NCBI GenBank assembly: GCA_934098665.1
Contig: CAKOOO010000001.1
Coordinates: 30,823-94,822 of the forward strand
Source: an uncultured Bacilli bacterium
GTDB taxonomy: Bacteria; Bacillota_I; Bacilli_A; RF39; UBA660
DNA length: 64,000 bases
Direction of reading: 5' to 3'
The translations under genes and the position numbers were made by a program. A model generated the notes under the pieces. It did not search any database. It worked only from the letters and a program-made list of their open reading frames with translations, and was not told the origin of the DNA. Shown here in pieces: positions 17,960 to 64,000 of this stretch (position 1 is its first letter; the number at the start of each line of letters is the position of its first letter).

Positions 17960-18346
17960 TTACCAAATTAAAGAGCAGACGTCAAATCTGATTTTACTTA
18001 ATTGTGTTGCTCTTAATGAATTTACTCTATATCCAACTGATATTATGGCATCTAAATTATAAAATTCAATATTTCTCTTAACACTTCTATTTTCTTCTTT
18101 TTGAACTAATTCTATTTTGGAATAAGTTGAATCTTTATCTAACTCATTTTCATTATAGATATTAATTAAATGCTTTGCTATTGCCGGTTGTTCTACATTA
18201 AATAATTCCGCAATAGTTTTTTGAGTCATCCATAAAGTTTCATTTTCATATCTTACTTGTATGCCTTTGTCTTTTTCTTGAAGTTTGAATGTTATAAATT
18301 TTTCAGTGCTACTTCTAATTATTAAATCTTTTGCCATTGTTATCAT
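17960..18346 (-). pseudogene. RhuM-family gene fragment (N-terminal ~113 aa only)
   Basis: Matches the RhuM N-terminus (...WMTQKTIAELF...YNLDAIISVGYRVNSLRATQ). Homology is lost where QFRxWAT should follow, and a stop comes soon after. Confidence 0.6.
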
Positions 18347-18518
18347 CTTCTTTGTCTAAAATAATAGTTTCCCATAAATCACTCTTACATAATTTTTATT
18401 AAAAATTGTAAAAAGGATTTTAATTAAAAGTTTTATAAAATAAGGGGTTTTAAGAGAGTTTATATAAGTCGTTCTTTACCAGTTGATTAAACTTTTATTA
18501 AACCCCATACCATTATTT

Positions 18519-24031: not shown

Positions 24032-25621
24032 TTAACTTTCTACTACATATGGATTATTCCACGTACCATCGCCTGATAAATTTACATCTTTTGATATTGA
24101 GATGACAGGGCGTATGGCATACCAAGTATTAGATGCATAAACACTTTGTGTGGCGTTATTAATATATACAGCAACTTCAATAAGACTATTTGTACTATTC
24201 CAGTAATACGATGTTCCTAACCAAAAACCAGCATTTGCATTTAGATACATATTTGATATAGCATTTTTAAAATCACTTCCAGCTAAAACTAATTCATCTG
24301 CTGTTAATAATCCAACCGGAATATTTAATTTTCCATTACCATTAGTCGTACTTACTGTAAATTTATCTTCACTATTAGGGCACAGCAAACTTGGACTTGC
24401 TGACACATATAATCTTTGATATGCATCAAAATAATAAGAATATGTAGGGTTAGACATCCAAGTTGTTCTTGTAGTCCTATCATTACAAAATATTTGTTCA
24501 GCAATAGCATCATTTAATTGATTTAAATTAGTATAATTATTGTACCAGTTTTCAATATACAATTTTATGTTACTATTATTTTGACTACCATGTTGTTCAC
24601 CAAGCGTATACATAAATCCGCCATATTCTGTGTTTGAAGCCGTATTATTAAATGGATTTATGCCAATATAATTATTATATGTTGTTAAAACAACCTTTGT
24701 ACTTTCAGTTGGTTCAGTAATTCCTGAGTAAATTAATCTTATTGAACCATCTCCATTTATTCTGACAATACGCCAATATATATCTTTCCCTAAAATTCCA
24801 GTTTGAGAACAACTACCACTAGATGGCTTTGTAGAAGAAAGAGAAGTAGCATCCATACACGCATAAGCATCACTTGTATATTTTCCAAATTTTAACCAGT
24901 TATTATCTACGGCTCCTCTAAAATAGTAAGATGTTCCTAAGTCATCTTCGATTGCATACATTCCTTCATTTTCAGTTGCTGCAATTGTAAAATCTGGTGT
25001 ATCTTTTGCTTCAATTGCATCTTTTCCACCATTATTATTTAAAATTAATAACACTGCTGATGACATAAAACTTATTTCATCAGATACTTTAACATTACCT
25101 GTGGCATCCTTTACCCACAAATATGGTGTATCACTTGTTATTGATGTAGATAGTGTATATGGTGTTGTTGGTATATTAAGCCACTCTTCAGGTTCAATAT
25201 CACTACTACTTGAAAGTCCATAACTTTTTAACATTACATTATCATTAAGTGTTACTGTTAAAATATCATTTTCTACTTTTAAGTCATCACTAATTGTTGG
25301 TGCTATGCTATCTTCATCAAAATATAATGTACATCTATCACTTCCTATAAAACTAAAACCCACTACACCACTAACATTATCATAACTTGAAATTTCCCCA
25401 TTATTTTCACAAAAACTTTTTTCTTTATTAAGTAAATAACTTCCTTTAGGAATATTTTTTGAATTTGTATAACTACTTGAATTATTTTCTTTTACATATA
25501 TTGCATAACTTTTATTTACTAACTTATTTTTATTTAAATTTATCTTTTTATTATATATAAAAATAATACTTAAAACTCCTATCAATAAAAATACGAACAA
25601 CACTATTTTTCCCTTTTTCAT
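24032..25621 (-). CDS. membrane-anchored variable surface protein, paralogue B1 (529 aa)
   Basis: Signal-anchor MKKGKIVLFVFLLIGVLSIIF. N-terminal ~185 aa homologous to the 42194 gene. C-terminal FWLGTSYYWNS...AIRPVISI...GDGTWNNPYVV module. RBS AAGAGGAG. Confidence 0.85.
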   Translation of the reverse strand: MKKGKIVLFVFLLIGVLSIIFIYNKKINLNKNKLVNKSYAIYVKENNSSSYTNSKNIPKGSYLLNKEKSFCENNGEISSYDNVSGVVGFSFIGSDRCTLYFDEDSIAPTISDDLKVENDILTVTLNDNVMLKSYGLSSSSDIEPEEWLNIPTTPYTLSTSITSDTPYLWVKDATGNVKVSDEISFMSSAVLLILNNNGGKDAIEAKDTPDFTIAATENEGMYAIEDDLGTSYYFRGAVDNNWLKFGKYTSDAYACMDATSLSSTKPSSGSCSQTGILGKDIYWRIVRINGDGSIRLIYSGITEPTESTKVVLTTYNNYIGINPFNNTASNTEYGGFMYTLGEQHGSQNNSNIKLYIENWYNNYTNLNQLNDAIAEQIFCNDRTTRTTWMSNPTYSYYFDAYQRLYVSASPSLLCPNSEDKFTVSTTNGNGKLNIPVGLLTADELVLAGSDFKNAISNMYLNANAGFWLGTSYYWNSTNSLIEVAVYINNATQSVYASNTWYAIRPVISISKDVNLSGDGTWNNPYVVES

Positions 25622-25667: not shown

Positions 25668-25793
25668 TAGATACTTTTAAGAAAATTGTACATCGATTTT
25701 ACGTATCTTACTATTAAATTATACATTAATTTTCATGATTTTTAAACCCTTTTTAACGATTTTTTCTTGTTCGTTTTTTCTTAAAAGTATCTA
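25668..25793 (-). promoter_or_regulatory. invertible promoter cassette 2 (promoter faces gene B1: ON)
   Basis: Perfect 18-bp inverted repeats: TAGATACTTTTAAGAAAA at 25668-25685 and its reverse complement at 25776-25793. On the minus strand the core carries TTTAAA (25746-25741), 17 nt, then TATAAT (25723-25718). Confidence 0.8.
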
Positions 25794-30205: not shown

Positions 30206-32689
30206 TTACTCTATTACAAAAGGATTTGTATATGAGCCATCACCTGATGATATTTCAGTTCCAGGTTTGATGGAAACGGCAGAGCGCACACCCCCCTCGC
30301 GGCCCACGTTTTCGTTCCAGCTACTGGAGCTCACTCCCAAGACGGCGGAGGTGTTAATGCCGAATCTGTAGGGAGAACTAAGAAAAACATTTTGGCCATT
30401 ATCAAAGTAATGACCATTTGAATTTGAATATCCCGCTAAACTTAATTCTGGTGCTGTTAATAATCCTATAGGATATTTTAACCTTGCTTTTGGATTATTT
30501 ACACTAAATCTATCTGTTTCATTTGCACATACTAAACTTTTATTCCTTAGACTATAATTTTTAAATTGTAATTCAGTTGTTGTACTTCCTCCATTTGGAT
30601 TCCAACCATTTTGTGATTCATTATCCATTGACCTATCATTACAAAATACTGTATCTTCTAGCCTATCATCATATTTATCTTTTATATTTTCTTCATACCA
30701 ACTATCTATATATGCTTTTATTGTACTATCTTTTGTATTTACATCATCGTTATATAACATTTCATTTAAAGCATCATTTACTGATTTTCCTCCAGTTAAG
30801 GTTATGTAATATAACGTTCCATTAGAATCATAATATACATAATAAACGGAGGTACAGCTATTACCATTTGTTAAACATGTATAATGATGAGTATTTACAT
30901 TTGTACTACTTGTACTCCATGTATCTGAATTTATTGTTACTGTATCAGTTAATGTATATGTTCCATTATATGTAAATGATGAACCAAATACATAATTACT
31001 TCCATTATCTGTTCCATCTACATCTCCTTTTGACAATGAGTAATAATAAATATAATTTGATTTATATCCTACTATATAATATACATTCGTACATGTTTCT
31101 GTTATAGAACTACTACTACAAGTATATTTTCCCACTAATGAACTTATATTTGACCATGTTACATTTAATGTTGTTGCTGTTGCACTATCAAGTGTATATT
31201 TACTCATACTACTATCATATATTACTGCATCGGCATATGCTTTTGTTCCATCGAAATATTCATTATTTACTATTGCTTTACTTGAAGGTGTATATACTTT
31301 GTTTTCATTATACATGTATCCCACATATGCTGGTGAATTATAATTACTATTAAATAGAGTTGTTCCTATTTGTGAATTATCTCCTATATTATTACATGAT
31401 TTTATTATACTATTAACTCTACCAAAACTAAATATTACATTATTTCTATCTCCTATCGTCCATGAATATTTTCTTGTATATATAATTTTTATTACATTTG
31501 ATGTAGTTAAGTTTTTAAAAACAATTTGTCCATTATCTGTTCCTGTAAATTTTCCTTGACTTACGTTATCTTTAAATATTTCTACATTTATACCATATTC
31601 ATAATCATTCATTGATAAATCATAATTTATTACATAATCTCCATTTGATGGTGCAGTAAATGATATTGTTGAACTATTTGTTCCAGTATTTGTACTTGTC
31701 CACATTTTATTTGTTTCATCAAATGTATATGGATATGTAGCATCATTACTTAAATTTACATATTCTGACTGACTTAATGACTCTGAAGTATAAAAATCTT
31801 TCTGTACACCATTATATACTATTTTAACTCCACCAGTATCTGTAGTTCTTACTATCTTCCAGCAGTAGTTTGCAAATAAAACATTATTATTTTCTACATT
31901 GCCATCAAAATAATATATATTATTTGCATATGTTGTTGTATCGCCATAATCTGCTCCATTATATAGTTTTACATATTCATCATTTGCATTATATCTTTTA
32001 GCAATTGCATTATATAAAGTTGGTTCTAATTCTTCAACTGTACAACTATTATTTTCTACATATATTGTTCCTGTAAACGATTTATCTACTAGTTGTGACT
32101 GGTCTAAATTTAAATTATAGTATCTTCCTGTTATATTTATATCTTGTATAGTACTTGTTCCACTACTTTTAATGGTGGCTCCTTTTACAAGTATTTTTTT
32201 TGCTCCTACTGTAGATGTTTTTGGTGTCCATGAGCTATCATAAGCAAAATTAGTTTCATTTACATAACTATTTGTTCCACTTGGGCTTTCTACTTGCATC
32301 GTAATTTCTTTTGTAGCTCCACTTGTTACATTTACTGTGTTTCCATATATTTCACTATCAAGATTATATTCATATACTACATCATATGTACATGTTGTTG
32401 TTACGTTTGGTGCTCCAGTTAAATTAACAGTAAGCGTTGCTGTATTTTCTGCGGCTAGTCCAGTATTTCCCTTAAACATACCACTTTTAGGTACTATTAC
32501 ATTTAAATTTGCACTTGTGGCAATAAAAGAGGTATTACCTATATCATTTGCATAAATATTTACCGCTACTTTATTTTCTAAATTTACTGTAAACATCCCA
32601 AAATATGCAAATGATGCCCCAATTAATATTAGAAGTAATACTAAACATGCTATAGCACTTTTTATAGTTATTTTCTTTTTATTTTTCAT
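30206..32689 (-). CDS. variable surface protein, paralogue A2 (827 aa) with a different N-terminal module
   Basis: Residues ~224-827 are closely similar to A1 residues ~104-717. The N-terminal ~220 aa are unrelated to A1 and begin MKNKKKITIKSAIACLVLLLILIGASFAYFG, resembling a TasA/camelysin SipW-type signal peptide. Confidence 0.85.
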   Translation of the reverse strand: MKNKKKITIKSAIACLVLLLILIGASFAYFGMFTVNLENKVAVNIYANDIGNTSFIATSANLNVIVPKSGMFKGNTGLAAENTATLTVNLTGAPNVTTTCTYDVVYEYNLDSEIYGNTVNVTSGATKEITMQVESPSGTNSYVNETNFAYDSSWTPKTSTVGAKKILVKGATIKSSGTSTIQDINITGRYYNLNLDQSQLVDKSFTGTIYVENNSCTVEELEPTLYNAIAKRYNANDEYVKLYNGADYGDTTTYANNIYYFDGNVENNNVLFANYCWKIVRTTDTGGVKIVYNGVQKDFYTSESLSQSEYVNLSNDATYPYTFDETNKMWTSTNTGTNSSTISFTAPSNGDYVINYDLSMNDYEYGINVEIFKDNVSQGKFTGTDNGQIVFKNLTTSNVIKIIYTRKYSWTIGDRNNVIFSFGRVNSIIKSCNNIGDNSQIGTTLFNSNYNSPAYVGYMYNENKVYTPSSKAIVNNEYFDGTKAYADAVIYDSSMSKYTLDSATATTLNVTWSNISSLVGKYTCSSSSITETCTNVYYIVGYKSNYIYYYSLSKGDVDGTDNGSNYVFGSSFTYNGTYTLTDTVTINSDTWSTSSTNVNTHHYTCLTNGNSCTSVYYVYYDSNGTLYYITLTGGKSVNDALNEMLYNDDVNTKDSTIKAYIDSWYEENIKDKYDDRLEDTVFCNDRSMDNESQNGWNPNGGSTTTELQFKNYSLRNKSLVCANETDRFSVNNPKARLKYPIGLLTAPELSLAGYSNSNGHYFDNGQNVFLSSPYRFGINTSAVLGVSSSSWNENVGREGGVRSAVSIKPGTEISSGDGSYTNPFVIE
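30272..30373 (-). other. GC-rich NNC-codon patch (candidate DGR variable region) in A2
   Basis: Hand count gives about 62% G+C, and 19 of 34 codons end in C. Encodes PYRFGINTSAVLGVSSSSWNENVGREGGVRSAVS. It sits at the same position as the A1 patch, but the sequence differs and is 3 codons shorter. Confidence 0.55.
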
Positions 32690-32811: not shown

Positions 32812-32936
32812 TAGGTAGATTTAAGAAAAATACATAACGTAATTTCGTTATTTAGACTTTAAAAATTACAAAAAATGATGTATTATTTAATAGTAAGGTA
32901 CGTAAAATCGAAGTAAGATTTTCTTAAATCTACCTA
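32812..32936 (+). promoter_or_regulatory. invertible promoter cassette 3 (promoter faces away from gene A2: OFF)
   Basis: Perfect 18-bp inverted repeats: TAGGTAGATTTAAGAAAA at 32812-32829 and its reverse complement at 32919-32936. The core carries, on the plus strand, TTTAAA (32858-32863), 17 nt, then TATTAT (32881-32886). The core is the reverse complement of the locus 1 core. Confidence 0.8.
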
Positions 32937-33035
32937 CTTTAGGAAAATACGAACAAGATAAACACTTAAGAAAATGAAAATTAATAAATTTTTTAAATTT
33001 ACATAAAAAAATTAAAGTAAATTACTCTAATTTTC

Positions 33036-33587
33036 TTATTTATTAACTCCATATTTTTTAGTAATAGGATCTAAAAATAATTCATTTTTTAAGGGATATA
33101 TTGTTAAAAGTAAATAAAAAGCAAATATAATAAATAAAATAATGCAACCTAAATAATTTAAAACAAATATTTCTTTAACATTATTTATTATATAATAATA
33201 AAAGTACTGGGAAACAAATACCGCTATATAAAAAATTAAAATATCTATAACTAAATAACTTTTTTTAGTAAACATTTTATAACCATAAAAAAGTATTGGA
33301 ATAAGTAAAATAACTATAATAATTGAGATAGATTTTGCAAAAAAATAGTTTATAGGTAAATTTATGCCTTCGAAAATTCCTAATAAAAATGAAGCAGAAA
33401 GTGCCATCTTAATATGTTCCCAAGTACTTTCATTTACTGCTGAAAAAATAGATGAAATTTTATTTTTATTAAATAACTTATATGTAAAATGAAAAAATGT
33501 ACCTAATATACTAACAAATAAAAAACCAATAATTAAATTCATAATATATGATATGAAAAAAAGTGCTACTTTATTCAACAGTAACAC
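33036..33587 (-). CDS. small polytopic membrane protein
   Basis: 183 aa with about 5 TM helices and an NESTWEHIKM motif. Overlaps the glmS stop, so the true start may be an internal Met. Confidence 0.55.
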   Translation of the reverse strand: MLLLNKVALFFISYIMNLIIGFLFVSILGTFFHFTYKLFNKNKISSIFSAVNESTWEHIKMALSASFLLGIFEGINLPINYFFAKSISIIIVILLIPILFYGYKMFTKKSYLVIDILIFYIAVFVSQYFYYYIINNVKEIFVLNYLGCIILFIIFAFYLLLTIYPLKNELFLDPITKKYGVNK

Positions 33588-35322
33588 TTTTTGCTAAATT
33601 TCTTGGTTTATCTATATCTTCACCTTTTAATAAGGCAACTTTATATGCAAGTAGTTGAAGACTTGCAACAACAAGTATAGGGTCTATAATACTATTTATA
33701 TGAGGTACTTTTATTTTATCATCATAAAAATCTCCCTGTATATCTAAACTTGTTATAAATAGTGAATATGCTCCCCTTGCATGAACTTCTTTAACATTAC
33801 TTATTGTTTTTAAAGCCAAATTTTCATCTGTAATTATACTCATTACTGGAGTATCATTTTCAATAAGGGAAATTGTACCATGTTTAAGTTCTCCAGAGGC
33901 AAATGCAGATGAGTTTATATAGCTTATTTCCTTTAATTTAAGGCTTCCTTCTTCGCAAAGGCCATAATCTATTCCCCTACCAATAAAGAAAGCATCTTTT
34001 TTATTATATATTTTTTTTGCGTATTTTTGATAGTCTATGTCAAATACAGTATCAAGTGCTTCATTTACTTTATAAAAATCATTTAAATCATTTACACCTC
34101 CCATTTTAAGGGCAATAAGTGTAAGAAGTAAATATTGAGCAGTAAATGCTTTAGTCGTTGCTACCGCTATTTCTGTTCCAGCTTTAATATATAATACTTT
34201 ACCTGCTTCTCTAGCTATCGAAGAACCTACTACATTTACAATAGCAAGAGTATCTATACCATCATTTTTAGTAATTCTAAGGGCCTCTAAAGTATCAGCA
34301 GTTTCACCAGATTGAGAAATAAATACTACTAAAGTATTCTTATCATAAAAATGTTTTTGATATCTAAATTCACTTGCTAAAAATACTTCACACTTAATAC
34401 TTGCATATTCTTCGAATACTTTTTTAGCAATATCTGCAGTATAACTTGCACTACCACAACCTACAAAATAAATATTTTTATATTTTTTAAACTCAGGCAT
34501 ATTTTCATTAAAATGACCATCAGTAATATAATGATTTAAAATATTATTAATAACTATAGGTTCTTCATGAATTTCCTTAAGCATAAAATGCGGATAATCA
34601 CCTTTCATTACATCATTACTTGTACCTTCAAAAGTTAAAAGTTTTTTCTTTAATAAATTTAAATTACTATCATAAATATATTCTTTATCAGAAATTTTAA
34701 CTATTTCATCATTTTCAAGTAAATAAAATTTATTTGTATATTTAAGTGCCGCTGTCATATCTGATACTAAAAAATATTCATTATTCTTTTTTGCAAGTAT
34801 TAAAGGAACATTTTTTCTAGCACCATATAAAGTATCAGGTTCATCTTCATTAATAATTGCAAGAGCATAACTTCCTTTTATATCGTTTTTAAGTCTTGCT
34901 AAAGTTTTAAGCATATCATGATTTTCATTATATAAATGATTTATATATCCACATAATATTTCTGTATCTGTTTCACTTTTTAAATTAACATTAATTATTT
35001 CCTTTAAATCTTTATAATTTTCAATAATACCATTATGAACAAGAGTTATTTTACCTTGTTTATGAGGATGTGCATTAATATCTGTTACTCCCCCATGAGT
35101 TGCCCATCTTGTATGAGCTATGCCAATGTTTCCATAGTCATCACTAGTAACTAAATTTTCAAGATTTTTAACCCTTCCTATAGTTTTTTTAATAGTTATT
35201 TTACCCCCATTTATATAAGCAAGTCCTGCTGAATCATAGCCTCTATATTCAAGTGATTTTAAGCCATTTAATAAAACAGGAATACTATTTTGGTTTCCTT
35301 TGTAACCAACAATTCCACACAT
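33571..35322 (-). CDS. glmS: glutamine--fructose-6-phosphate aminotransferase
   Basis: 583 aa with the N-terminal nucleophile MCGIVGY, two SIS domains and a C-terminal ...AKSVTVE. Preceded by the glmS ribozyme. Confidence 0.97.
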   Translation of the reverse strand: MCGIVGYKGNQNSIPVLLNGLKSLEYRGYDSAGLAYINGGKITIKKTIGRVKNLENLVTSDDYGNIGIAHTRWATHGGVTDINAHPHKQGKITLVHNGIIENYKDLKEIINVNLKSETDTEILCGYINHLYNENHDMLKTLARLKNDIKGSYALAIINEDEPDTLYGARKNVPLILAKKNNEYFLVSDMTAALKYTNKFYLLENDEIVKISDKEYIYDSNLNLLKKKLLTFEGTSNDVMKGDYPHFMLKEIHEEPIVINNILNHYITDGHFNENMPEFKKYKNIYFVGCGSASYTADIAKKVFEEYASIKCEVFLASEFRYQKHFYDKNTLVVFISQSGETADTLEALRITKNDGIDTLAIVNVVGSSIAREAGKVLYIKAGTEIAVATTKAFTAQYLLLTLIALKMGGVNDLNDFYKVNEALDTVFDIDYQKYAKKIYNKKDAFFIGRGIDYGLCEEGSLKLKEISYINSSAFASGELKHGTISLIENDTPVMSIITDENLALKTISNVKEVHARGAYSLFITSLDIQGDFYDDKIKVPHINSIIDPILVVASLQLLAYKVALLKGEDIDKPRNLAKSVTVE

Positions 35323-35347
35323 AAAAAATTTCCTTTCTTGTTTTATT

Positions 35348-35478
35348 AAATACCTCTTTGTTATAATTTATATTTTATTTTTTCAAAGTATTTTACGAAG
35401 TAAAACTTCTCCGCTTACACATCCGCTGAAAAATCGACAATGTAAGTCCTCGTCACCTATAACCGGCCATGCGCTATT
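35348..35478 (-). ncRNA. glmS ribozyme: glmS ribozyme/riboswitch
   Basis: Minus strand reads AGCGCAUGGCCGG...GUGACGAGGACUUACAUUGUCGAUUUUUCAGCGGAUGUGUAAGC.... This matches the conserved glmS ribozyme core (AGCGCC..., GACGAGG, AUCGAAUUUUCGGCGGAUGCC). It sits in the 5' UTR of glmS. Confidence 0.8.
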
Positions 35479-35519
35479 ATAAAAAAATACTCCTTTCGCT
35501 TTCTATAATTTCTAAAAAG

Positions 35520-35643: not shown

Positions 35644-36615
35644 ATGGAATTGAAGCAACCCATAAATGATTTATATAAACATTGTCACTATGCTAAACAT
35701 ATTAATTATAATAGTTTAAATGAACAAATTGAAAAAGAAAACTTTTATTTAAATAATAATTTTATTTATGAAGAAATGATAAACAGTTTTTTAGATAATA
35801 ATGAGCAAGTTCATAATAAAAAAACTAAATATAATGAACATTTAAATGAAGATGATTTATTTACTTTAACTTATGATTTTTTTAAAAATTTAGATAGTGA
35901 TATTTTTAAAACATTTACTATTTTATTTAATAATAAAGAAAATAACATAAGTTTTATAAAAGATAAAATTAATTCTAGATATATTGGCTACACTAAAAAG
36001 TATCCAAATAATTTTATTAAAATTGAAATGATTAAAAATAATAATATAACGGATTTATATACCCTTGTACATGAATATGGTCATGCAATAAATCATTTAA
36101 ATAATGATTTTAACTATACTTTATATAGAAAACCTTTTTCAGAAATTGAAAGTACATTTTTAGAAATTTTATTATCAAATTATTTAGAAAAAAATGGATT
36201 TAATCAAAAAGATATTTTATATTATAATAATTTTAAGTTTGATAGCATATATAAAGATGCCCTTTTTATGAAAGCTAAATATTTATTTTTAGATTTTCAA
36301 AATTTAAATCATTTAAATTGTCATAATAAAAATTATTATAAAGAAATTAAGCATATGGTAAATATTTCAAAAAAAGATATTAAATATTTATATAGTATAA
36401 ATTCTTATGAACTTCTTCCTTATGTAGTAAGTCCTTTATATGCTTTTGAACTTTATGATATGTATTTAAAATCAAAAGAAAAAGCTATGAGTGTATATAA
36501 AAAAATAATTTCTTTTGATAGCCCATCATCAATAGATATAATAAAAAATTTAGAAAGTTTTTATTTATACCCTAATGAAACTGATACATGTATAAGATAT
36601 TTAAAAAGGAAGTAA
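35644..36615 (+). CDS. HExxH zinc metallopeptidase-like protein (half-size, M3/PepF-like motif region)
   Basis: 323 aa with HEYGHAINH followed about 25 residues later by SEIESTFLE, an HExxH...E arrangement as in M3 oligoendopeptidases. No signal peptide. Confidence 0.5.
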   Translation: MELKQPINDLYKHCHYAKHINYNSLNEQIEKENFYLNNNFIYEEMINSFLDNNEQVHNKKTKYNEHLNEDDLFTLTYDFFKNLDSDIFKTFTILFNNKENNISFIKDKINSRYIGYTKKYPNNFIKIEMIKNNNITDLYTLVHEYGHAINHLNNDFNYTLYRKPFSEIESTFLEILLSNYLEKNGFNQKDILYYNNFKFDSIYKDALFMKAKYLFLDFQNLNHLNCHNKNYYKEIKHMVNISKKDIKYLYSINSYELLPYVVSPLYAFELYDMYLKSKEKAMSVYKKIISFDSPSSIDIIKNLESFYLYPNETDTCIRYLKRK

Positions 36616-36616
36616 T

Positions 36617-37522
36617 ATGAAAGTAAATGTTAATGAATATAAAAATAAATTAAGAAAAAAAATATATATTGATAATAAAAATATTAGTTTTAATCCAAAT
36701 ATAACTAGGGTTATAGAAAACTTTGCTTGTGTAAATAAGGCATCTGACTGGAAAGAAAATTCAGTAGTAAGTTTAACTAAAAATGACATATTTGATCTTA
36801 CTTATGATTTTTATAAAAGTTTTTTAGATAAGAATCTTTTTAATATATTTGAGTGTTATTTTAAAAACAGAAATGAAAATATTTATTTTTTAAAAAAATC
36901 AAAATATAATCTCGAAGGATATACAGATGAAAATAACATAATTAAAATAATTAACAATAATAAATATAATTATATTATCCTTGATACACTTATTCATGAA
37001 ATTGGTCATGCTATAGCAAATATTTATAACGATAAAAATTGTAATTTAGATTATAAGCTAGCTTATAGTGAAATAGAAAGTATTTTTCCAGAATTTTTAT
37101 CAACTATGTTTATTAATGAAAAAGAATATTCACAAACTATTTATAATTCATATTTATCATTATGTAACTTAAATAACATTTTAAATTATAAACTTGAGGT
37201 ATATTACTATATGAAAAATAATAACATAGATATAAATAATAAAGATTTATTTTTTAAACTTAATAATGATTTAGGTTGTGACTATGAATGTCTAGCTCAA
37301 ACTTATGAAACATCATTTAATTATTATCTTCCCTATACTATTGGTTCAGCTTATGCATTTTTTCTAATTAATATTTATATTGATGATAAAGACTATGCTT
37401 TAAAACTTTATAAAGATATACTAAATATGCATTTTTATAATGAAAGATATTATGAAAAATATTTAAGTAATAATGGTATATATCCAAACTATTCTTGTAA
37501 ACTTTTTAGGGTAAAAAAATAA
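36617..37522 (+). CDS. HExxH zinc metallopeptidase-like protein, tandem paralogue
   Basis: 301 aa with HEIGHAIAN...SEIESIFPE. Colinear with the preceding gene and starts 1 nt after its stop. Confidence 0.5.
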   Translation: MKVNVNEYKNKLRKKIYIDNKNISFNPNITRVIENFACVNKASDWKENSVVSLTKNDIFDLTYDFYKSFLDKNLFNIFECYFKNRNENIYFLKKSKYNLEGYTDENNIIKIINNNKYNYIILDTLIHEIGHAIANIYNDKNCNLDYKLAYSEIESIFPEFLSTMFINEKEYSQTIYNSYLSLCNLNNILNYKLEVYYYMKNNNIDINNKDLFFKLNNDLGCDYECLAQTYETSFNYYLPYTIGSAYAFFLINIYIDDKDYALKLYKDILNMHFYNERYYEKYLSNNGIYPNYSCKLFRVKK

Positions 37523-42193: not shown

Positions 42194-43642
42194 TTAACCA
42201 ATATGATATGGACTGGTTTGAGAACCAGTGCCACCTACTATTTTTATAGCATCACTATCTAAATAGAAAGTTGGACGGACTGCAAACTGGTTGCTTCCGA
42301 CAAGGTAGTTATAGTTGTAGCTGATGTTCACAAACCCTGGCGAAAACAAAATAGCAGCATTATTCGAATTCGAAGAAAAAGGGGAAAGAAGCCATTCTCC
42401 ACTACTTACAAAACTACTTTGTGATGTAAACAACCAATCATTATTATAACAATCACTATATGATGAATCGTCCCAATAATATAATGCTTTTGCTCTACAA
42501 CTTGACTTATTTGTTGTAGAACCTCCCACTGTGGCATAACCATAATCACTTGGGTACATTAATCCAATTTTTGCAAATATACTGCTTGGATTACCACTAT
42601 ATATTGCACTTGTATTTCTTTCCTCTGTATAAATACCTTCTGCCGTTAAAGTACCATAATTCGATGAACTCGCTCCACCTAAATGCCATTTTGCATTTGC
42701 TACCCCACTAGATAGTTTACTATTTACATTTGAAGTGCCTAATATAGTAGTTAAATATGTACCATTAATTTCAGTTTTTAATGATACGATCTCCCAATTA
42801 TTTGTTCCTGATGAATTCCAATACTTTCCACTTGTTCCACCATAGTTATTTGTATCTATTACTTTTAATAGTTTTTTAGTTCCACTACTATTTGTTCCAT
42901 CACTTGAATACTCTTCATCAAATAATCCAATTATTCTAAATAATAATGAAGTACTTGAACATGTACCTTCTTTTTGATTATCTAAACATATGTAGTTATT
43001 TGGATTAGCTCCTTCATATCTTATTCCATTTTCGTCAAATATATCTGTATTGTTTGCTACCATTAATGTTTCAAATGATGTTCCAAGTGATATTGTAAAT
43101 TCTTTTATAGTTTTATTTCCTGCACTATCTTTTACCCATAGAAAATACGTACCTTCACTTTCTATAGTAATATTTAAATTATAGGTTGTACCAGTTATTT
43201 GTGTCCAACTTGTTGGCTCTACATTATTACTCATACTTAATCCATATCCAACCAAATTATTATTATCTGATAATGTAGCGGTTAATATATTTTCATTTAC
43301 TGTTAAATTATTTATTGTTGGTGCTATGCTGTCTTCATCAAAATATAAAGTACATCTATCACTTCCTATAAAACTAAAACCCACTACACCACTAACATTA
43401 TCATAACTTGAGATTTCTCCATTATTTTCACAAAAACTTTTTTCTTTATTAAGTAAATAACTTCCTTTGGGAATACTTTTTGAATTTGTATAACTACTTG
43501 AATTATTTTCTTTTACATATATTGCATAGCCTTTATTTACTAACTTATTTTTATTTAAATTTACTTTTTTATTATAGATAAAAACCATACCTAAAATCCC
43601 TATTATTAAAAATACGAACAACACTATTTTTTTCTTCTTCAT
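42194..43642 (-). CDS. membrane-anchored variable surface protein, paralogue B2 (482 aa)
   Basis: Start placed at MKKKKIVLFVFLIIGILGMVF (43642) after AAGAGGAG; the track ORF begins 10 codons upstream. N-terminal region homologous to B1. C-terminal EWLLSP...FAVRPTFYL...GGTGSQTSPYHIG. Confidence 0.85.
   Translation of the reverse strand: MKKKKIVLFVFLIIGILGMVFIYNKKVNLNKNKLVNKGYAIYVKENNSSSYTNSKSIPKGSYLLNKEKSFCENNGEISSYDNVSGVVGFSFIGSDRCTLYFDEDSIAPTINNLTVNENILTATLSDNNNLVGYGLSMSNNVEPTSWTQITGTTYNLNITIESEGTYFLWVKDSAGNKTIKEFTISLGTSFETLMVANNTDIFDENGIRYEGANPNNYICLDNQKEGTCSSTSLLFRIIGLFDEEYSSDGTNSSGTKKLLKVIDTNNYGGTSGKYWNSSGTNNWEIVSLKTEINGTYLTTILGTSNVNSKLSSGVANAKWHLGGASSSNYGTLTAEGIYTEERNTSAIYSGNPSSIFAKIGLMYPSDYGYATVGGSTTNKSSCRAKALYYWDDSSYSDCYNNDWLFTSQSSFVSSGEWLLSPFSSNSNNAAILFSPGFVNISYNYNYLVGSNQFAVRPTFYLDSDAIKIVGGTGSQTSPYHIG
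42272..42351 (-). other. shorter AAC/NNC-codon-rich patch in B2
   Basis: GTG AAC ATC AGC TAC AAC TAT AAC TAC CTT GTC GGA AGC AAC CAG TTT GCA GTC CGT CCA encodes FVNISYNYNYLVGSNQFAVRP. AAC/TAC/AGC codons are unusual for this genome. Weaker than the A1 and A2 patches. Confidence 0.35.
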
Positions 43643-43688
43643 ACACTCCTCTTTTTGCCAGTAAATACGCACGTCTATTTTCTCATAT

Positions 43689-43813
43689 TAGGTAGATTTA
43701 AGAAAATTACATAACGTAATTTCGTTAAAAAGGGTTTAAAAATTATAAAAATTAATGTATAATTTAATAGTAAGGTACGTAAATACGAGATAGAATTTTC
43801 TTAAATCTACCTA
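43689..43813 (+). promoter_or_regulatory. invertible promoter cassette 4 (promoter faces away from gene B2: OFF)
   Basis: Perfect 20-bp inverted repeats: TAGGTAGATTTAAGAAAATT at 43689-43708 and its reverse complement at 43794-43813. The core carries, on the plus strand, TTTAAA (43735-43740), 17 nt, then TATAAT (43758-43763). The core is the reverse complement of the locus 2 core. Confidence 0.8.
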
Positions 43814-43844
43814 CTTTAGGAAAATACGAACAAAGTAGATACTG

Positions 43845-43872
43845 GGTTTATTTGATATAAGCCTATTTTTTT
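43845..43872 (+). terminator. weak plus-strand hairpin + T-run just outside cassette 4
   Basis: GGTTTA-TTTGATA-TAAGCC (one G-U pair) followed by TATTTTTTT. It lies downstream of the OFF-oriented promoter. Confidence 0.4.
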
Positions 43873-43943
43873 AATTTATACTAAAAAACCACTAAAAATA
43901 GTGTTCTTTAAAACAAAAATATTGAAAATATATAAGCAAAATG

Positions 43944-44798
43944 CTACTTTATTTTTAAAATAATTTTATCAAAAAATGGATAACATAAACTTAAAATAAG
44001 TGATGTAATATAAACTCCTATATTAATGTCAAAAAATGAAAATAAAAATGTAAATAAGCCTAGGGCAAAACCATAAATATAGTTTCCACCTTTTGTATAT
44101 GGTGTAAAAATAGATATAGTATTTAAATAAACAAATGCAAATATTAAATTATTATTTAAAGTAAAATTTATATCAGCATTATTACCTAGTAAAAATGAAA
44201 TTGTTATAAGAACATAATATACTACAAAAGCTGTTATAGGAATATGTTTTTTATATTCAAATTTAGTTATTAAATAGATAAAAGATAGTATACTATAAAT
44301 TGTTAATGTATTAGATATTCCCCCACTTCCACATCCAAATAAATAATTTGTTAATGTATAATTGTGAACTACACTTTCTTCATATATATTTTGATAGCTT
44401 AAATTTTTAAATAAATAAGAAGTAATTATATATAAAATCATATATATAAGTGGTATATTTAATTTTTTAAATTTATATAAAATATTTAATAATACTAAAA
44501 GTACTATAAAAACTATAATATTTGTTTTCGCAGGGGTAATTATGCTTATAAAAATATTTAAAAGAAGTCTATATGATATAAAATCCTCTTCAAAAAGTTT
44601 TTTTAAAATATAGGTAGTTATAATAGAAATGCATACTAAAAATGGTACTTTAAATAAACTAAATAAATTAATTAAATCTTTTTTATAAAGAAGTATACCA
44701 TTTTTATAAAAACCATAAAGTGCAAATGGAATCATTAATAAAAGTAATAATTTAATAAAACTTTTACTATCATTTTTAGCTCTTAAATAAACATTCAT
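43944..44798 (-). CDS. RnfD/NqrB-like polytopic membrane protein
   Basis: 284 aa, about 8 TM helices, translationally coupled to the RnfC-like gene upstream. Family call made by eye only. Confidence 0.45.
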   Translation of the reverse strand: MNVYLRAKNDSKSFIKLLLLLMIPFALYGFYKNGILLYKKDLINLFSLFKVPFLVCISIITTYILKKLFEEDFISYRLLLNIFISIITPAKTNIIVFIVLLVLLNILYKFKKLNIPLIYMILYIITSYLFKNLSYQNIYEESVVHNYTLTNYLFGCGSGGISNTLTIYSILSFIYLITKFEYKKHIPITAFVVYYVLITISFLLGNNADINFTLNNNLIFAFVYLNTISIFTPYTKGGNYIYGFALGLFTFLFSFFDINIGVYITSLILSLCYPFFDKIILKIK

Positions 44799-48189: not shown

Positions 48190-49944
48190 TTAGTTCATTT
48201 TTTTCTTAAGTATTAATGCAGTTGCTCCTAAAAGTGCTAAACTCATAAGAGTAACTGAAGTATAAACTAAAATTCCATCAACTGTATTAGGATTTTCTAC
48301 TTTATTAGTTGTATTAGAATTTTCTACTTTATCAGTTGTATTAGGTTTTTCTACTTTATCAGTATTATCTTTAGTTTCAGTTTTTTCTGGAGTATAGAAA
48401 CTAAGTTCAAATGTAGAGAAACTTTCTGTTTCAATTTCAATATATTTTTGTCCATTTTCTTCCTTAATTTCATATTCTTTAGTATCAATTACTGTTTCTC
48501 CATTTTTATGTACTACTTTTGCATGTGTAAATGTAATTTCATTAGGAACCGCAACTTTAACTTTTATTTTACCAGTTATTGCTTCATTTGGAAGTACTTT
48601 AGCTTCTTGATTAATTATATAATAAGGTTTAATATCAAGAACTAAAACACCTTTTTCTTTATCATAAGATTTAATTTCAGTAGACATTTTAACTTCAATT
48701 AAAGTGTTTTCTACTCCCTCGATTTTAGATGAATCTATAGCATCTTTTAACCCTGTAACAGTATCAGTAAGTTTTGCATCAGTTAATTCTTTAGCAACTT
48801 TTTCGTCTACTTTATCACTAACTTTAACTTCTGGAGTAGTAACAACTAATTCACCTTTGTTTTCACTTACTATAGTATACATTTCACCATTTTTAACAGC
48901 TTTTACACCTGTTACTAGTTTTACTCCACCTTTTTTAGCAACTATTTCATCAGTAAATGAACCACCAGAAATTTCAATTTCATCAGGTTTCAACATATCA
49001 ATGTTTCCATAGAATCTTCCACCTTTAACCTCAACTGAAGTTACTAGTTTACTATTTACAACATCATCTGCATTTTTTTGTGCTATGTAATGATAAATTG
49101 AATTTCCATATGCTGAATGGTATTCCCCACCTTCAATAGTAAGTTCAATATTTCCAGCATATCCATTATTTGATTCAATAGCAATTGCAGCACCCGTGGC
49201 ATTAATACCATCGCCATTATATGTACCTTTAACTTTCTCTCCAGTAGCATATATTGTAGCATTCTTAATATTAATTTTTCCGGCTTTTATACCAAATCCA
49301 CCTTTATCGCCTTCAATTGTAGCTCCATCAATATTCCAAATTGCATATCCAGCTGCATATAGTCCATAATCCTTACTAATAAATTTAGCAGTATTATAAA
49401 TGTTAATAACAGGACAATTTTTTATCCTTTTATTATTTCCACTTATAGTAAATGCAGGTTGTGGAACTTCACTAACAGATTTAAATGTACCTTTAAGATT
49501 TACTGTAACACCAAAAGCATCCCAGCTAATATATGTTCCATAATCTCCTTCTAAAGTTACATTTTCATCAACAGTAAGTGATGACCAATTTGTATCATTT
49601 TCATCTTCTGAACCATAAATAACAACTGGAGCAGCAAGATGCATAGTACCATTAATAGTACCTTTACCTGTAATTGTTAAGTAACCTTTATTAACTTTAA
49701 TTCTATTGTTTTGAGTTAAAATGTTATGATCATTTAAATCAAGTGTAACAGTTTTACCATCATTAACATTAATATCGCCAGTTAAAGTTAAATTTTCAGT
49801 TAACTTAGCCTCGCCGCCATTTTTAAAGACTTCGGCAAGTTCGTCTTCTGTTTTAACTTCTTTAGTTTCCGCAAATACAATTGAGGGCAAAATCATTGCA
49901 AAAACCATTACTAAAGTTAAAACAACTCTTTTTAGGTTTTTCAT
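48190..49944 (-). CDS. secreted surface protein (beta-helix-like repeats) with C-terminal sorting-signal-like tail
   Basis: 584 aa with signal peptide MKNLKRVVLTLVMVFAMILPSIVFA. C-terminus: DKVEKPNTT DKVENSNTT NKVENPNTVDG, a hydrophobic helix, then KKKMN. Confidence 0.7.
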   Translation of the reverse strand: MKNLKRVVLTLVMVFAMILPSIVFAETKEVKTEDELAEVFKNGGEAKLTENLTLTGDINVNDGKTVTLDLNDHNILTQNNRIKVNKGYLTITGKGTINGTMHLAAPVVIYGSEDENDTNWSSLTVDENVTLEGDYGTYISWDAFGVTVNLKGTFKSVSEVPQPAFTISGNNKRIKNCPVINIYNTAKFISKDYGLYAAGYAIWNIDGATIEGDKGGFGIKAGKINIKNATIYATGEKVKGTYNGDGINATGAAIAIESNNGYAGNIELTIEGGEYHSAYGNSIYHYIAQKNADDVVNSKLVTSVEVKGGRFYGNIDMLKPDEIEISGGSFTDEIVAKKGGVKLVTGVKAVKNGEMYTIVSENKGELVVTTPEVKVSDKVDEKVAKELTDAKLTDTVTGLKDAIDSSKIEGVENTLIEVKMSTEIKSYDKEKGVLVLDIKPYYIINQEAKVLPNEAITGKIKVKVAVPNEITFTHAKVVHKNGETVIDTKEYEIKEENGQKYIEIETESFSTFELSFYTPEKTETKDNTDKVEKPNTTDKVENSNTTNKVENPNTVDGILVYTSVTLMSLALLGATALILKKKMN

Positions 49945-58320: not shown

Positions 58321-58397
58321 GCGCCCATAGCTCAACTGGATAGAGCGTTTGACTACGGATCAAAAGGTTGGGGGTTCGAATCCCTTTGGGCGTACCA
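58321..58397 (+). tRNA. trnR: tRNA-Arg (anticodon ACG)
   Basis: Folded by hand: acceptor GCGCCCA/TGGGCGT, D-arm GCTC/GAGC, anticodon stem TTTGA/TCAAA with loop CTACGGA, T-loop TTCGAAT, encoded CCA. Confidence 0.9.
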
Positions 58398-58425
58398 ATT
58401 TTATAATGTACACGCAAAAATTTAT

Positions 58426-58453
58426 TTGCAAAATGGAAATTATATGATATAAT
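58426..58453 (+). promoter_or_regulatory. candidate promoter of tRNA-Pro
   Basis: TTGCAA, 16 nt, then TATAAT. Lies 11 nt upstream of the tRNA 5' end. Confidence 0.4.
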
Positions 58454-58464
58454 AAGTTTGTTTT

Positions 58465-58541
58465 CGAGAAGTAGCACAGTTTGGTAGTGCACTACGCTTG
58501 GGACGTAGGGGTCGCAGGTTCAAATCCTGTCTTCTCGACCA
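58465..58541 (+). tRNA. trnP: tRNA-Pro (anticodon UGG)
   Basis: Folded by hand: acceptor CGAGAAG/CTTCTCG, D-arm GCAC/GTGC, anticodon stem CTACG/CGTAG with loop CTTGGGA (G37), T-loop TTCAAAT, encoded CCA. Confidence 0.9.
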
Positions 58542-59958: not shown

Positions 59959-60891
59959 TTAAATTTTACGATAGCATTTATTCATTAGAAAGTTCATAAT
60001 TTCATCATCAATGTCACTTTCATAATACTTTATAAGTAGATTTTTATATTCTGAAACTAAATTATCTGGTATAACTATTAAACCTTTTCCTTTGCTAATT
60101 AAATAATGATTAGCAAATATTACTGAAGTTCTTTTATTTCCATCAATAAACATTTGAGATTTAACTACATATAATAATAATTTAATACTTTTTTGAACAT
60201 CATCAATATCTAAACTAAGAATATTATTTAAATTATCTTTTATATCAGCCTCAATTGGAAGTTCAGGTGTCCAAGACGTACCACCAATTTTAACTGGAGT
60301 TGTTCTAAGACTTCCCGCTAAATAATAAAATCCTTCCTCAACAAATTTATTTATAGAACATAAAATATTATAATCAGTTTTACTTAAAATAACATTTTTA
60401 TTTAATATAAATTCCCAAGCGTGTTTTAAATTAACAACTTTTAATATATCATCAACAATCATATTATTTACTTTATTACCATTTATAATATTTTCTATTT
60501 CAGAAAGTGTTGTAGCAATTCCCTCAAGTATTGCTTGATTATAAATCGTATCTACTAAATGTTTTCTTGCAAAATCAATATTTTTAGCAACATCTAAAGG
60601 TAAATCTTCATCAAAATAATTTAGTTTATTTAATTCTTTTTCTATATTACGAATAGATTTTTTTAATGTTTTAGCTTTAATATTATTATTTAACACTAAA
60701 TTATATAATTCTTCTGTGTATTCACCCACATATTTTGTGGATTGTAAGCCATCCTCTTTTGTATGCAAATAGATATATTTTTTGCTATCTTTTTCTCTAA
60801 TTTCAATAGCTCCATATACAAGTTCATTAAGTAAAGTTACATATTGTCTTTTTTGATTCAATAAATTTAATATTTTTATTTGATTTTCCAT
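59959..60891 (-). CDS. Fic/Doc-family protein with a degenerate active-site motif
   Basis: Start taken at MENQIKIL (60891) after GGTGGTG. The C-terminal motif is QMFIDGNKRTSVIF; compare Doc HxFxDGNKRT, where His is replaced here by Gln. Confidence 0.6.
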   Translation of the reverse strand: MENQIKILNLLNQKRQYVTLLNELVYGAIEIREKDSKKYIYLHTKEDGLQSTKYVGEYTEELYNLVLNNNIKAKTLKKSIRNIEKELNKLNYFDEDLPLDVAKNIDFARKHLVDTIYNQAILEGIATTLSEIENIINGNKVNNMIVDDILKVVNLKHAWEFILNKNVILSKTDYNILCSINKFVEEGFYYLAGSLRTTPVKIGGTSWTPELPIEADIKDNLNNILSLDIDDVQKSIKLLLYVVKSQMFIDGNKRTSVIFANHYLISKGKGLIVIPDNLVSEYKNLLIKYYESDIDDEIMNFLMNKCYRKI

Positions 60892-60919
60892 ATCAACACC
60901 ACCGCTATCATTATACAAC

Positions 60920-60974
60920 AAAAAATAAAAAATGTGAAACTTTTTTAATATTTTTCTTATTAAAAGTTTCACAC
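60920..60974 (-). terminator. terminator hairpin, copy B (upstream of the fic-like gene)
   Basis: 12-bp stem TGTGAAACTTTT/AAAAGTTTCACA with the same loop as copy A, followed on the minus strand by a T-run. Confidence 0.55.
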
Positions 60975-60977
60975 TAA

Positions 60978-61178
60978 TTATCTTCGATATAAATTATATC
61001 TATATTCTCTTTCAGCCTCATGTTTTAAATAATTTGCATCTTTACAAATATCTTTCATAATTTTTTCTTTACTACAAATTCTATCTTCGCTTGCCTTAAA
61101 TTCTGCATAGATGTATATTCTTTTACAAGGAACCTCTAAACTATTTAAGGCCTCTTTTATAAAATTTAACATTACCAA
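60978..61178 (-). CDS. 66-aa hypothetical ORF (possibly a gene remnant)
   Basis: ORF with no convincing RBS. It is followed by terminator copy B, and the region upstream (61179-61551) is non-coding. Confidence 0.3.
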   Translation of the reverse strand: MVMLNFIKEALNSLEVPCKRIYIYAEFKASEDRICSKEKIMKDICKDANYLKHEAEREYRYNLYRR

Positions 61179-61551
61179 GTTTTAAAAGTAATACTATTAA
61201 ACTATTTAATATACTTTTTAAGAATATAAGGTTTACCAAATTTTCTTTTATTAAGAATCCTCTTTAATGTCCAATTCTTATTAAATGTTTAAAATCTAAT
61301 TTTAATACATTAAAAAACTTAGACATTTCTATCTAAGTTTAAAATTTTTTTTCGCTTTTAATTGCAGCTTGTACCACAGTTTAGTTCGGAATGCTTTGAT
61401 ATTTTTTTTCAACTAATTGACTTAACGTTTTTTCTTTTAAATTTTTTTATAAAAATAGGGCTCTATCCTAAAATAGACCCCTTACAAAAATGATTTAACA
61501 TTTTTTCCTTGCATAGATAATATATCATAAACATTTATCTATGTCAAACTA

Positions 61552-62541
61552 TTACTCCAAATTTTCTTTATAATTTTTCTCAATAATTTTATCAAAATAA
61601 TTATATATGGATTTCAATAGTCCATTATTATTATAGTATTTTCCATTCAAAATTATTCTTCCATAAAATAATTTTGTAATATCGTGTTTTACATTATTTT
61701 TTACGCCATCACTACTTACTATAATATTAAATATATATAAAGTATATGTAATTTGTCTTATTCTTGAATTAGAAAGTTTAGTATTTCTATTCTCTTTCCC
61801 AATATCACAATCCTTTAAATAATTAATAACTAACGTATCAGCTCTATGTGTATTGTCTTTTTTGTCTAGTTCACATAATACACAAGAATTATGAGCAACA
61901 GCATTTCTAAGTTTATTTACTTCTCTTAAAATAAATATATATTTATTATCGTCTAAAACATAATGTTTAGTAAAGAAATCAAAAAAATTAATCAATTCAC
62001 CAAATGTGATTATTTCAAGAAATTCCCAAATAGGTATATTTTCTATTTTAGTATCTTTATCTAAATCGTATTTAGAAAATATTTTTTGATAATACTCATT
62101 TGAAACTTTTTTTCTAATACTTTCATGCATTCTTTTAGGACGTTCCTTGTCATTAAAATCTTTTTTCAAATATAAATTAACAATTTTATAACCATCTTCT
62201 TCTGATATTTTCTCAATAGTATTTAGTATTCTTATTTTTAAATAATGTTCTATATCAATTATCATTTTAAATAATACTAATCTAGTTCTATAGTCTATAA
62301 TAGATAAATCTTTTAAATATGCAAAATCTAAATCTATATATTTTCCTTCAAGCTCACCACATTGATATTTAACAAAATTATTTTTATATGATGTTACATT
62401 ATAATAGTTATTATTCTCTTTTAAATATATTTCAGCATCTTGTTCTGAGTAACATTCAAATTTAATGTTTTTATTTTTCAAATAAGGAACCATATCAGAT
62501 ATTTTCATCATTGGTCTTAATATCAAAGTTTTATTATTCAT
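61552..62541 (-). CDS. Abi_2 (AbiD/AbiF-like) abortive-infection family protein
   Basis: Start taken at MNNKTLIL (62541) after AGGAGGG. Typical Abi_2 layout (...YLKENNNYYNVTSYKNNF..., IIDYRTRLVLFKMIIDIEHYLK, KLRNAVAHNS). Confidence 0.75.
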   Translation of the reverse strand: MNNKTLILRPMMKISDMVPYLKNKNIKFECYSEQDAEIYLKENNNYYNVTSYKNNFVKYQCGELEGKYIDLDFAYLKDLSIIDYRTRLVLFKMIIDIEHYLKIRILNTIEKISEEDGYKIVNLYLKKDFNDKERPKRMHESIRKKVSNEYYQKIFSKYDLDKDTKIENIPIWEFLEIITFGELINFFDFFTKHYVLDDNKYIFILREVNKLRNAVAHNSCVLCELDKKDNTHRADTLVINYLKDCDIGKENRNTKLSNSRIRQITYTLYIFNIIVSSDGVKNNVKHDITKLFYGRIILNGKYYNNNGLLKSIYNYFDKIIEKNYKENLE

Positions 62542-62652
62542 AATTACCCTCCTATTTGGATTTTTTAATAGATAATTATATTTTATCATAAATATTAATA
62601 TTTTTTTACTTTAGATACAAAAAAAACTGAGATTTTTTCCTACTACAATGGT

Positions 62653-63891: not shown

Positions 63892-63899
63892 CTTACACC

Positions 63900-64000
63900 T
63901 CACATCTTATCAATATTTTCTAAAAAAGTATTTAATGATTTATACCACTCAAACATACCAAGTTTTCTATTTTGATATCTAATTAGTTCTTCTTCATTAT
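63900..64000 (-). CDS. hypothetical protein (C-terminal 33 codons; 5' end beyond window edge)
   Basis: Open minus-strand frame ...NEEELIRYQNRKLGMFEWYKSLNTFLENIDKM* runs in from the window edge. Its stop overlaps the next gene's RBS region. Confidence 0.35.
   Translation of the reverse strand, partial: NEEELIRYQNRKLGMFEWYKSLNTFLENIDKM

Follow-up and report, generated by a model that had tools for sequence, protein, structure and literature searches.

Switching of surface structures between ON and OFF states by promoter inversion is known in its classical form from E. coli fimS, with FimB and FimE, and from Salmonella hin. In both cases the recombinase genes lie adjacent to or inside the invertible element. 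The sites of Hin/Gin-type serine invertases are 26 bp long and have a 2-bp core. In Mycoplasma penetrans, the mpl genes (P35) constitute a surface multigene family with several loci, in which most genes have their own short invertible promoters and are turned ON and OFF independently, with genes for candidate tyrosine recombinases located elsewhere; this is the account given in PMC2268961, which cites Horino et al. 2003. The same source describes, for Bacteroides fragilis, many capsule and surface promoter invertons under a globally acting recombinase, with combinatorial variation as the outcome (PMC2268961). In Clostridioides difficile, several unlinked invertons (cwpV, flgB, cmrRST, pdcB and others) depend on a single tyrosine recombinase, RecV, that acts in trans; switching is altered or locked when the inverted repeats change. 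The 13-6-13 sites of RecV are treated as canonical tyrosine-recombinase sites (PMC12282940). Inverton surveys such as PhaseFinder and DeepInverton exist; the DeepInverton paper contains no mention of Mollicutes, Tenericutes, RF39 or Bacilli, and our literature search found no paper on invertons in the lineage considered here.

We have analyzed a 64-kb stretch of DNA from an uncultured Bacilli bacterium (hereafter, the window), in which four similar intergenic cassettes are present. The present work is concerned with the fourth of them, located upstream of a gene designated B2. We conclude, with a probability of roughly 0.8, that the region between positions 43677 and 43825 is an invertible promoter (inverton) that is found in the OFF orientation and controls B2.

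Cassette 4 and its paralogues in the window

The first-pass annotation placed perfect 20-bp inverted repeats at the borders of cassette 4, and both direct reading of the sequence and a repeat finder confirm them: the left arm is TAGGTAGATTTAAGAAAATT and the right arm is its exact reverse complement (Table 1). The element bounded by these arms is 125 bp long and intergenic, with 85 bp separating the arms, an rnfD-like gene on one side and B2 on the other. According to the repeat finder, imperfect complementarity (80%) extends to 50 nucleotides per arm (43676-43725 and 43777-43826). The B2 start codon is read on the minus strand (CAT at 43640-43642) and is preceded by a GAGGAG Shine-Dalgarno sequence. 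A TTTAAA-17-TATAAT sequence (10 of 12 hexamer positions matched) had also been annotated in the core, on the plus strand and pointing away from B2, which starts at 43642, and its position and direction are as described. It is the sole σ70-like match on either strand between positions 43400 and 44100. DNA as AT-rich as this is expected to produce many such matches by chance (5.4 in the same scan), so the hexamers alone are no evidence of a promoter.

Table 1. Features of cassette 4 and of the four cassettes as a group (positions in the window).
Feature	Positions	Strand	Remarks
Gene-proximal putative recombination site, 12-7-12	43677-43707		contains left arm, 43689-43708
Proximal outer half-site ATTTTCTCATAT	43677-43688		
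Proximal 7-bp spacer TAGGTAG	43689-43695		
Proximal inner half-site ATTTAAGAAAAT	43696-43707		
85-bp core between perfect arms	43709-43793		
Promoter-like site, TTTAAA-17-TATAAT	43735-43763	+	TTTAAA 43735-43740, 17 nt, TATAAT 43758-43763; OFF state
Gene-distal putative recombination site, 12-7-12	43795-43825		contains right arm, 43794-43813
Distal inner half-site ATTTTCTTAAAT	43795-43806		
Distal spacer CTACCTA	43807-43813		TAGGTAG on the other strand
Distal outer half-site CTTTAGGAAAAT	43814-43825		
Weak hairpin followed by seven U	43843-43872	+ only	possible terminator
Hairpin with U-run, end of upstream rnfC/rnfD-like operon	43881-43911	-	-9.6 kcal/mol
Fixed B2 5' leader	43643-43676	-	GAGGAG at 43646-43651; kept among paralogues
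B2, the presumed controlled gene, 482 aa	42194-43642	-	predicted N-terminal transmembrane helix, then beta-sandwich domains
Cassette 1	9175-9299		spacer TAGATAC; ON in window and in every other sample seen; gene 6975-9128 (-), 717 aa
Cassette 2	25668-25793		spacer TAGATAC; ON in window, OFF in three other samples; B1, 24032-25621 (-), 529 aa
Cassette 3	32812-32936		spacer TAGGTAG; OFF in window, ON in other samples; gene 30206-32689 (-), 827 aa
Cassette 4	43689-43813		spacer TAGGTAG; OFF in window; B2, 42194-43642 (-), 482 aa

When the window was searched with the arm sequence and up to three mismatches were allowed, seven matches were obtained against 0.13 expected, a number that was reached in none of 100 shuffled sequences. 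These matches mark the four cassettes of 125-126 bp listed in Table 1, each of which is located upstream of a minus-strand gene for a paralogous, presumably membrane-anchored protein. With the conserved flanks as the reference, loci 1 and 2 carry the core as the reverse complement of that present at loci 3 and 4, and the promoter-like site accordingly faces the gene at the former two loci (the ON state) and faces away from it at the latter two (the OFF state). At least ten cassettes, in both orientations, are present in a separate metagenome, OIZL01; its contigs have only the gene family in common with the window and are not syntenic with it, so they offer no comparison between orthologous loci. 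No Rfam family matched in or near any of the cassettes.

Two kinds of short repeated motifs were observed around the cassettes. The 13-mer AAAATACGAACAA is present within the B2 N-terminal coding sequence (43609-43621) and again in the distal flank (43821-43833), with the same arrangement at the other loci, and motifs related to CGTATTT(A/T)C recur in the core, the 5' leader and the distal flank. They could be binding sites of an accessory protein or parts of a leader hairpin (-15.8 kcal/mol).

Inversion and the layout of the recombination sites

Other gut metagenome assemblies carrying these loci were found by exact-protein look-up; they are consensus assemblies and not reads. Locus 2, which is ON in the window and in L138 and L141, is OFF in three other samples (L137, L139 and L140). 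Locus 3, OFF in the window, L154 and L155, is ON in L156 and L158, and also in L157, where the distal flank differs. The sole difference between the alternative alleles of loci 2 and 3 over 800 bp is an exact reverse complement of the middle 89-90 bp, bounded by 18-bp repeats. The same was seen in a related species that encodes P0071, a protein 65% identical to B2. In ten human-gut samples that share this gene and its neighbours, eight have the cassette in one orientation, and in the remaining two (L133 and L135) a 108-bp segment is exactly reverse-complemented. This segment is bounded by the 11-bp repeats ATTATATAGAT and ATCTATATAAT, which correspond to the spacer (see below) and 2 bp on each side of it. 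The cassette family thus inverts. In assembly ERZ27287225, locus 3 is OFF while loci 1 and 2 are ON; in ERZ27287474, locus 2 is OFF and locus 3 is ON. Since the states differ between loci within one sample, it follows that the switches are independent. The annotation of cassette 4 as an invertible cassette in the OFF state is upheld, with inversion observed at loci 2 and 3 and in the related-species orthologue, and the OFF assignment at locus 4 made by comparison with ON alleles.

Alignment of all distinct cassette states revealed that each cassette end is a 12-7-12 dyad, in which a half-site fitting ATTTTCYYAWAK is followed by a 7-bp asymmetric spacer and an inverted half-site. The outer half-site lies outside the inverted segment, next come the spacer and the inner half-site, and all four half-sites of a cassette fit the same motif. 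At locus 4, the dyad is matched without mismatches at 43678-43706 and 43796-43824. A degenerate form of the dyad was found eight times in the 64 kb (0.64 expected), once at each cassette end; since the pattern was derived from these very sites, the result demonstrates exclusivity and is not an independent discovery. The 20-bp repeat makes up only part of the recombination site, whose outer half-site falls outside it. Since the perfect repeat of the P0071 species shrinks to the spacer and 2 bp on each side, strand exchange would have to occur there. If locus 4 behaves as loci 2 and 3 do, everything between its two spacers would flip.

The repeat variants distinguished by the first-pass annotation turned out to be spacer variants: TAGGTAG at loci 3 and 4 and TAGATAC at loci 1 and 2, matched between the arms of each locus just as it had stated, with TATATAG in the P0071 species. 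Of the 14 distinct cassettes tabulated, 12 have two identical spacers, as does every cassette that was seen to flip. The two spacers are mismatched in L162 (TAGATAC versus TAGGTAG; near L162:798-1000), in L120a (TAGGTAG versus TAGATAG; cassette near L120 5747-5772, with its gene-sense match at position 3157 of the minus strand) and, outside the 14, in the locus 1 cassette of L169 (TAGATAC versus TAGATAT, together with a half-site change; L169:3540-3700). All three mismatched cassettes are ON and were seen in no other state, which fits the idea that a spacer mismatch may lock a switch ON through a requirement for overlap homology, the sample being only three. At the syntenic locus 4 position, strains differ in spacer class and each is internally matched (L159 compared with the window), which shows concerted spacer change at one chromosomal position. 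The earlier suggestion that the arms are kept matched by function or by the inversion process holds insofar as matching is the rule; the three mismatched cassettes depart from it, and gene conversion between paralogues that replaces a cassette as a whole would account for the concerted change just as well as the chemistry of inversion would.

In two contigs, a cassette with its gene is linked to a distal flank otherwise typical of another locus (compare 32937-33010 and 43814-43880 of the window). L157:1-200 connects the locus 3 gene to a flank of the hairpin type, and L166:1-260 connects a B2 allele of the L161 type to a distal flank of the locus 3 type. In both, the point of exchange is at the distal recombination site. 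These joins could be products of site-specific recombination between cassettes (a deletion with an excised circle) or assembly chimeras.

B2, the promoter-like site and rival explanations

The paralogues are 17-46% identical to B2 overall, and B1 and B2 have a nearly identical N-terminal stretch of about 110 amino acids. No Pfam or NCBIfam family was found for B2 and its paralogues, and no relative of B2 with a solved structure could be detected by sequence in the PDB. The AlphaFold model of B2 (mean pLDDT 59) consists of a transmembrane helix (residues 2-32), confidently predicted beta-sandwich domains (approximately residues 40-190) and a poorly modelled C-terminal half. The only Foldseek matches of this model were to generic Ig, PKD and adhesin beta-sandwiches, and none reached E ≤ 0.001. 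The N-terminal helix lacks a lipobox cysteine. On the basis of the model, we read B2 and its paralogues as membrane-anchored surface proteins. More than 3,500 homologues were found, nearly all of them from metagenome assemblies, and the sample-labelled ones that were seen come from the gut.

The promoter-like site may be judged from ON-oriented cores: all 11 distinct cassettes keep the -35 TTTAAA, the -10 TAT[A/T]AT and a spacing of 17 nt, although the sequence between the hexamers drifts, and this pattern of conservation is promoter-like. A block downstream of the -10 element is also strongly conserved. One could propose instead that the segment carries no promoter and works after initiation, as at cwpV or flgB, through an orientation-dependent terminator or a Rho effect on a transcript that started upstream. 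Such switches exist in Firmicutes (PMC7446863), and the proposal gains from the hexamer match not being significant by itself and from the conserved downstream block having no assigned role. However, what is conserved in the core are the hexamers and their spacing, and a σ70-like scan of 43400-44100 found no promoter-like site on the gene strand upstream of or outside cassette 4. Moreover, since the upstream rnfC/rnfD-like operon is closed by its own hairpin with a U-run, read-through into B2 is unlikely. The read-through RNA would fold nearly alike in both orientations (-52.9 versus -52.0 kcal/mol), with no hairpin and U-run specific to one of them, so an orientation-dependent terminator of the cwpV type is not supported. 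We consider regulation after initiation very improbable. Still further from the data is the view that the element does not act as a switch at all, being either a MITE or a chance palindrome. Its terminal inverted repeats and size of about 125 bp are indeed MITE-like, but copies are found only upstream of one gene family, the flanks are conserved on both sides, there is no pattern of target-site duplication, and exact in-place inversion was observed at sister loci; for a chance palindrome, the seven arm matches against 0.13 expected are far too many. This view is effectively refuted.

The main rival to a working inverton is that the switch at locus 4 once worked but is now locked, or fossil, in the OFF state, which would leave B2 constitutively silent in this strain. 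Locus 4 was recovered from other samples via its neighbours, i.e., the rnfD-like gene and, for other strains, the downstream neighbour. The allele present in the window is OFF in six of six informative assemblies (five full, L145-L149, and one partial, L150), and no other state of it was seen; most of the related syntenic alleles are OFF as well (L159/L165, L161/L163 and L166). Against a locked copy stands a syntenic, though divergent, allele in L162 that is ON, from which it follows that the locus 4 position can be ON. The sites of locus 4 are also the most perfect of the four, with a perfect 20-bp repeat, matched spacers and no dyad mismatches, whereas the clearly decayed arms of L169 have no counterpart there. 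The B2 frame is intact and has been conserved, with 100% identity on six contigs and close homologues at 78-84% identity. Uniformity of state is itself a weak guide, since assemblies show only the majority orientation and locus 1 is equally uniform (ON in all). A locked copy thus appears rather improbable, and the preferred reading, a cassette 4 that is switch-competent, is likely on the evidence of its sites and of the intact B2 frame.

Breaks of contigs at cassettes (L136, L150, L151 and six OIZL01 contigs) were considered as a sign of mixed orientation and rejected as proof of it, because identities of about 40 nucleotides between paralogous cassettes break assemblies anyway. L150 ends in the middle of the core and L151 inside the distal arm; at these breaks, loci 3 and 4 have about 40 identical nucleotides in common, and coverage is low.

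In the OFF state, a transcript started at the promoter-like site would run antisense into the upstream operon, and the hairpin at 43843-43872 could stop it. The predicted stability of this hairpin is -8.3 kcal/mol on the plus strand and -1.2 kcal/mol on the minus strand, with a z-score of -1.6 at locus 4. Loci 1 and 2 have equivalent distal hairpins, the one at locus 2 with a z-score of -3.3, whereas locus 3 has none. A consensus terminator scan called no terminator near cassette 4, this hairpin included. Since the hairpin was not called and locus 3 lacks it, its terminator role is one that we infer.

The recombinase, the host and comparison with known systems

No recombinase gene was found among the ORFs of the 64-kb window, and six-frame translations of the window contained no recombinase signature motifs, with no resolvase-type ORF or signature among them. 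The search was also negative in the 10 kb to the left and approximately 6 kb to the right of the window (about 80 kb in total around the loci), in the gene tables of all related loci and, by Pfam, among the ORFs of the OIZL01 contigs. Since no recombinase is encoded within about 80 kb of the loci, the enzyme would act in trans from elsewhere. A 12-7-12 arrangement with asymmetric spacers identical between partners is the canonical form of tyrosine-recombinase core sites. Such sites have two inverted binding elements of about 11-13 bp around an asymmetric 6-8-bp overlap that is identical in the partners, and the 12-7-12 layout is found at all eight cassette ends. Because of this layout, and by an argument published for RecV sites (PMC12282940), a tyrosine recombinase is favoured as the probable enzyme; as a hallmark, the architecture is suggestive only, and a serine recombinase with its cut within the 11-bp repeat would also be possible. 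As to whether a single enzyme could act on both repeat variants, a question raised by the first-pass annotation, both spacer classes invert in one species with the same half-sites, so one enzyme would be sufficient as far as can be told from the sites. A scan of 596 Gb of contigs with TAGRTASWTTTAAGAAAA produced 116 lone chance matches and no real cassettes, the pattern being too degenerate.

Among the B2 homologues, a single source name was found, the NCBI label "hypothetical protein [Mycoplasma sp.]". Genes for FtsW/RodA, a Mur ligase, a PBP5-type carboxypeptidase, SpoVIF and a sporulation-type sigma factor are present in the lineage, and the ORFs of the organism read intact in genetic code 11. 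Since cell-wall and sporulation genes are present and code 11 is used, the Mycoplasma label looks like a misnomer, and the host is, judging by its gene content, probably a walled, spore-forming member of the Bacillota.

Several other features of the window were recorded. A glmS ribozyme (Rfam RF00234, 60.5 bits) at 35339-35486 (-) is located upstream of glmS (33571-35322), an ordinary arrangement, and a borderline Rfam match to pemK RNA (35.0 bits, with a gathering score of 34.8) is found at 15306-15386 (-). Two tandem paralogues of about 300 amino acids on the minority strand (35644-37522, +) have HExxH motifs (VHEYGHAINH and IHEIGHAIAN) and no Pfam family, and may be uncharacterised metallopeptidases. 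A KilA-N domain protein (18519-19373) beside a short RhuM-like ORF (together 17960-19373, -) may be a remnant of a mobile element. Three adjoining genes with Fic, Abi_2 and HopA1-like domains (59959-63903, -) form a defence-like or toxin-like islet next to tRNA-Arg and tRNA-Pro (58321-58541). Two further large secreted or anchored proteins with a signal peptide and a C-terminal transmembrane segment, similar in this respect to proteins of the cell surface, are encoded at 16085-17911 and 48190-49944 (-), and no cassette is present upstream of either gene.

Taken together, the data can be accommodated in the following scheme. B2 would be one of at least four paralogous genes in the window for membrane-anchored surface proteins, each with its own switch. 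A recombinase encoded elsewhere would bind two 31-bp sites in inverted orientation, each composed of two 12-bp half-sites around the asymmetric spacer, and strand exchange within the spacers would flip the approximately 110 bp between them. After the flip, TTTAAA-17-TATAAT would face B2 and yield an mRNA whose leader is about 100 nt long. As the cassette stands now, the promoter would fire toward the upstream operon, and the weak plus-strand hairpin with its U-run may stop the transcript. Independent switching of the loci would lead to combinatorial surface variation.

A wider proposal, tentative and in our opinion unlikely to hold in full, is that one trans-acting tyrosine recombinase serves at least ten surface-protein invertons, with spacers acting as address codes, mismatches locking switches ON, and exchange within a spacer class reshuffling genes and flanks. 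If this is true, recombination would be limited to the ends of one cassette or to cassettes of the same spacer class, which would keep the loci independent, and occasional exchange between cassettes of the same class would account for the joins in L157 and L166.

If the scheme is right, an uncultured and poorly annotated human-gut lineage of Bacillota varies a large surface-protein family by multi-locus promoter inversion, and a family of more than 3,500 homologues without a known domain acquires its first functional context, phase-variable surface exposure. The 31-bp site motif could be used to look for the recombinase and for the other members of the regulon, and orientation markers could be scored in existing gut metagenomes. 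No new principle is involved, since invertons of surface molecules are already well known in gut bacteria.

Judged by its sequence, the element is not a member of the RecV, mpl/P35 or Hin/Gin systems. Unlike at fimS and hin, the surrounding stretch of about 80 kb contains no recombinase gene, and the invertible segment itself is much too short to hold one; compared with Hin/Gin elements, the segment is non-coding and only about 110 bp long, and the centre of its sites is 7 bp, an odd number. The RecV switches of C. difficile resemble those described here in belonging to gut Firmicutes and in having inverted binding motifs around a short spacer. However, the sites here are 12-7-12 rather than 13-6-13 and differ in sequence, the RecV motif AWAGTWNCCNTTW-N6-WAANGGNWACTWT having no match in the window with up to three mismatches allowed; in addition, the switches here all control one paralogous family, and the promoter appears to lie inside the segment. 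B. fragilis (Mpi, Tsr), a gut commensal of a different phylum, likewise combines multiple promoter invertons, which inverton surveys have catalogued, with surface variation. Its Mpi enzyme belongs to the serine recombinases and has the repeat consensus ARACGTWCGT, which is absent from the window.

The closest system in logic is that of the M. penetrans mpl genes. The proteins differ: those studied here have an N-terminal transmembrane helix and no lipobox, and are thus not lipoproteins like P35, and no significant similarity to the M. penetrans families was detected (MpPF26, E = 0.14). The host here, moreover, appears to be a walled and probably spore-forming member of the Bacillota. The likeness lies in the logic: in both systems, surface-protein genes at multiple loci appear to have invertible promoters of their own, and the recombinase would be encoded elsewhere.
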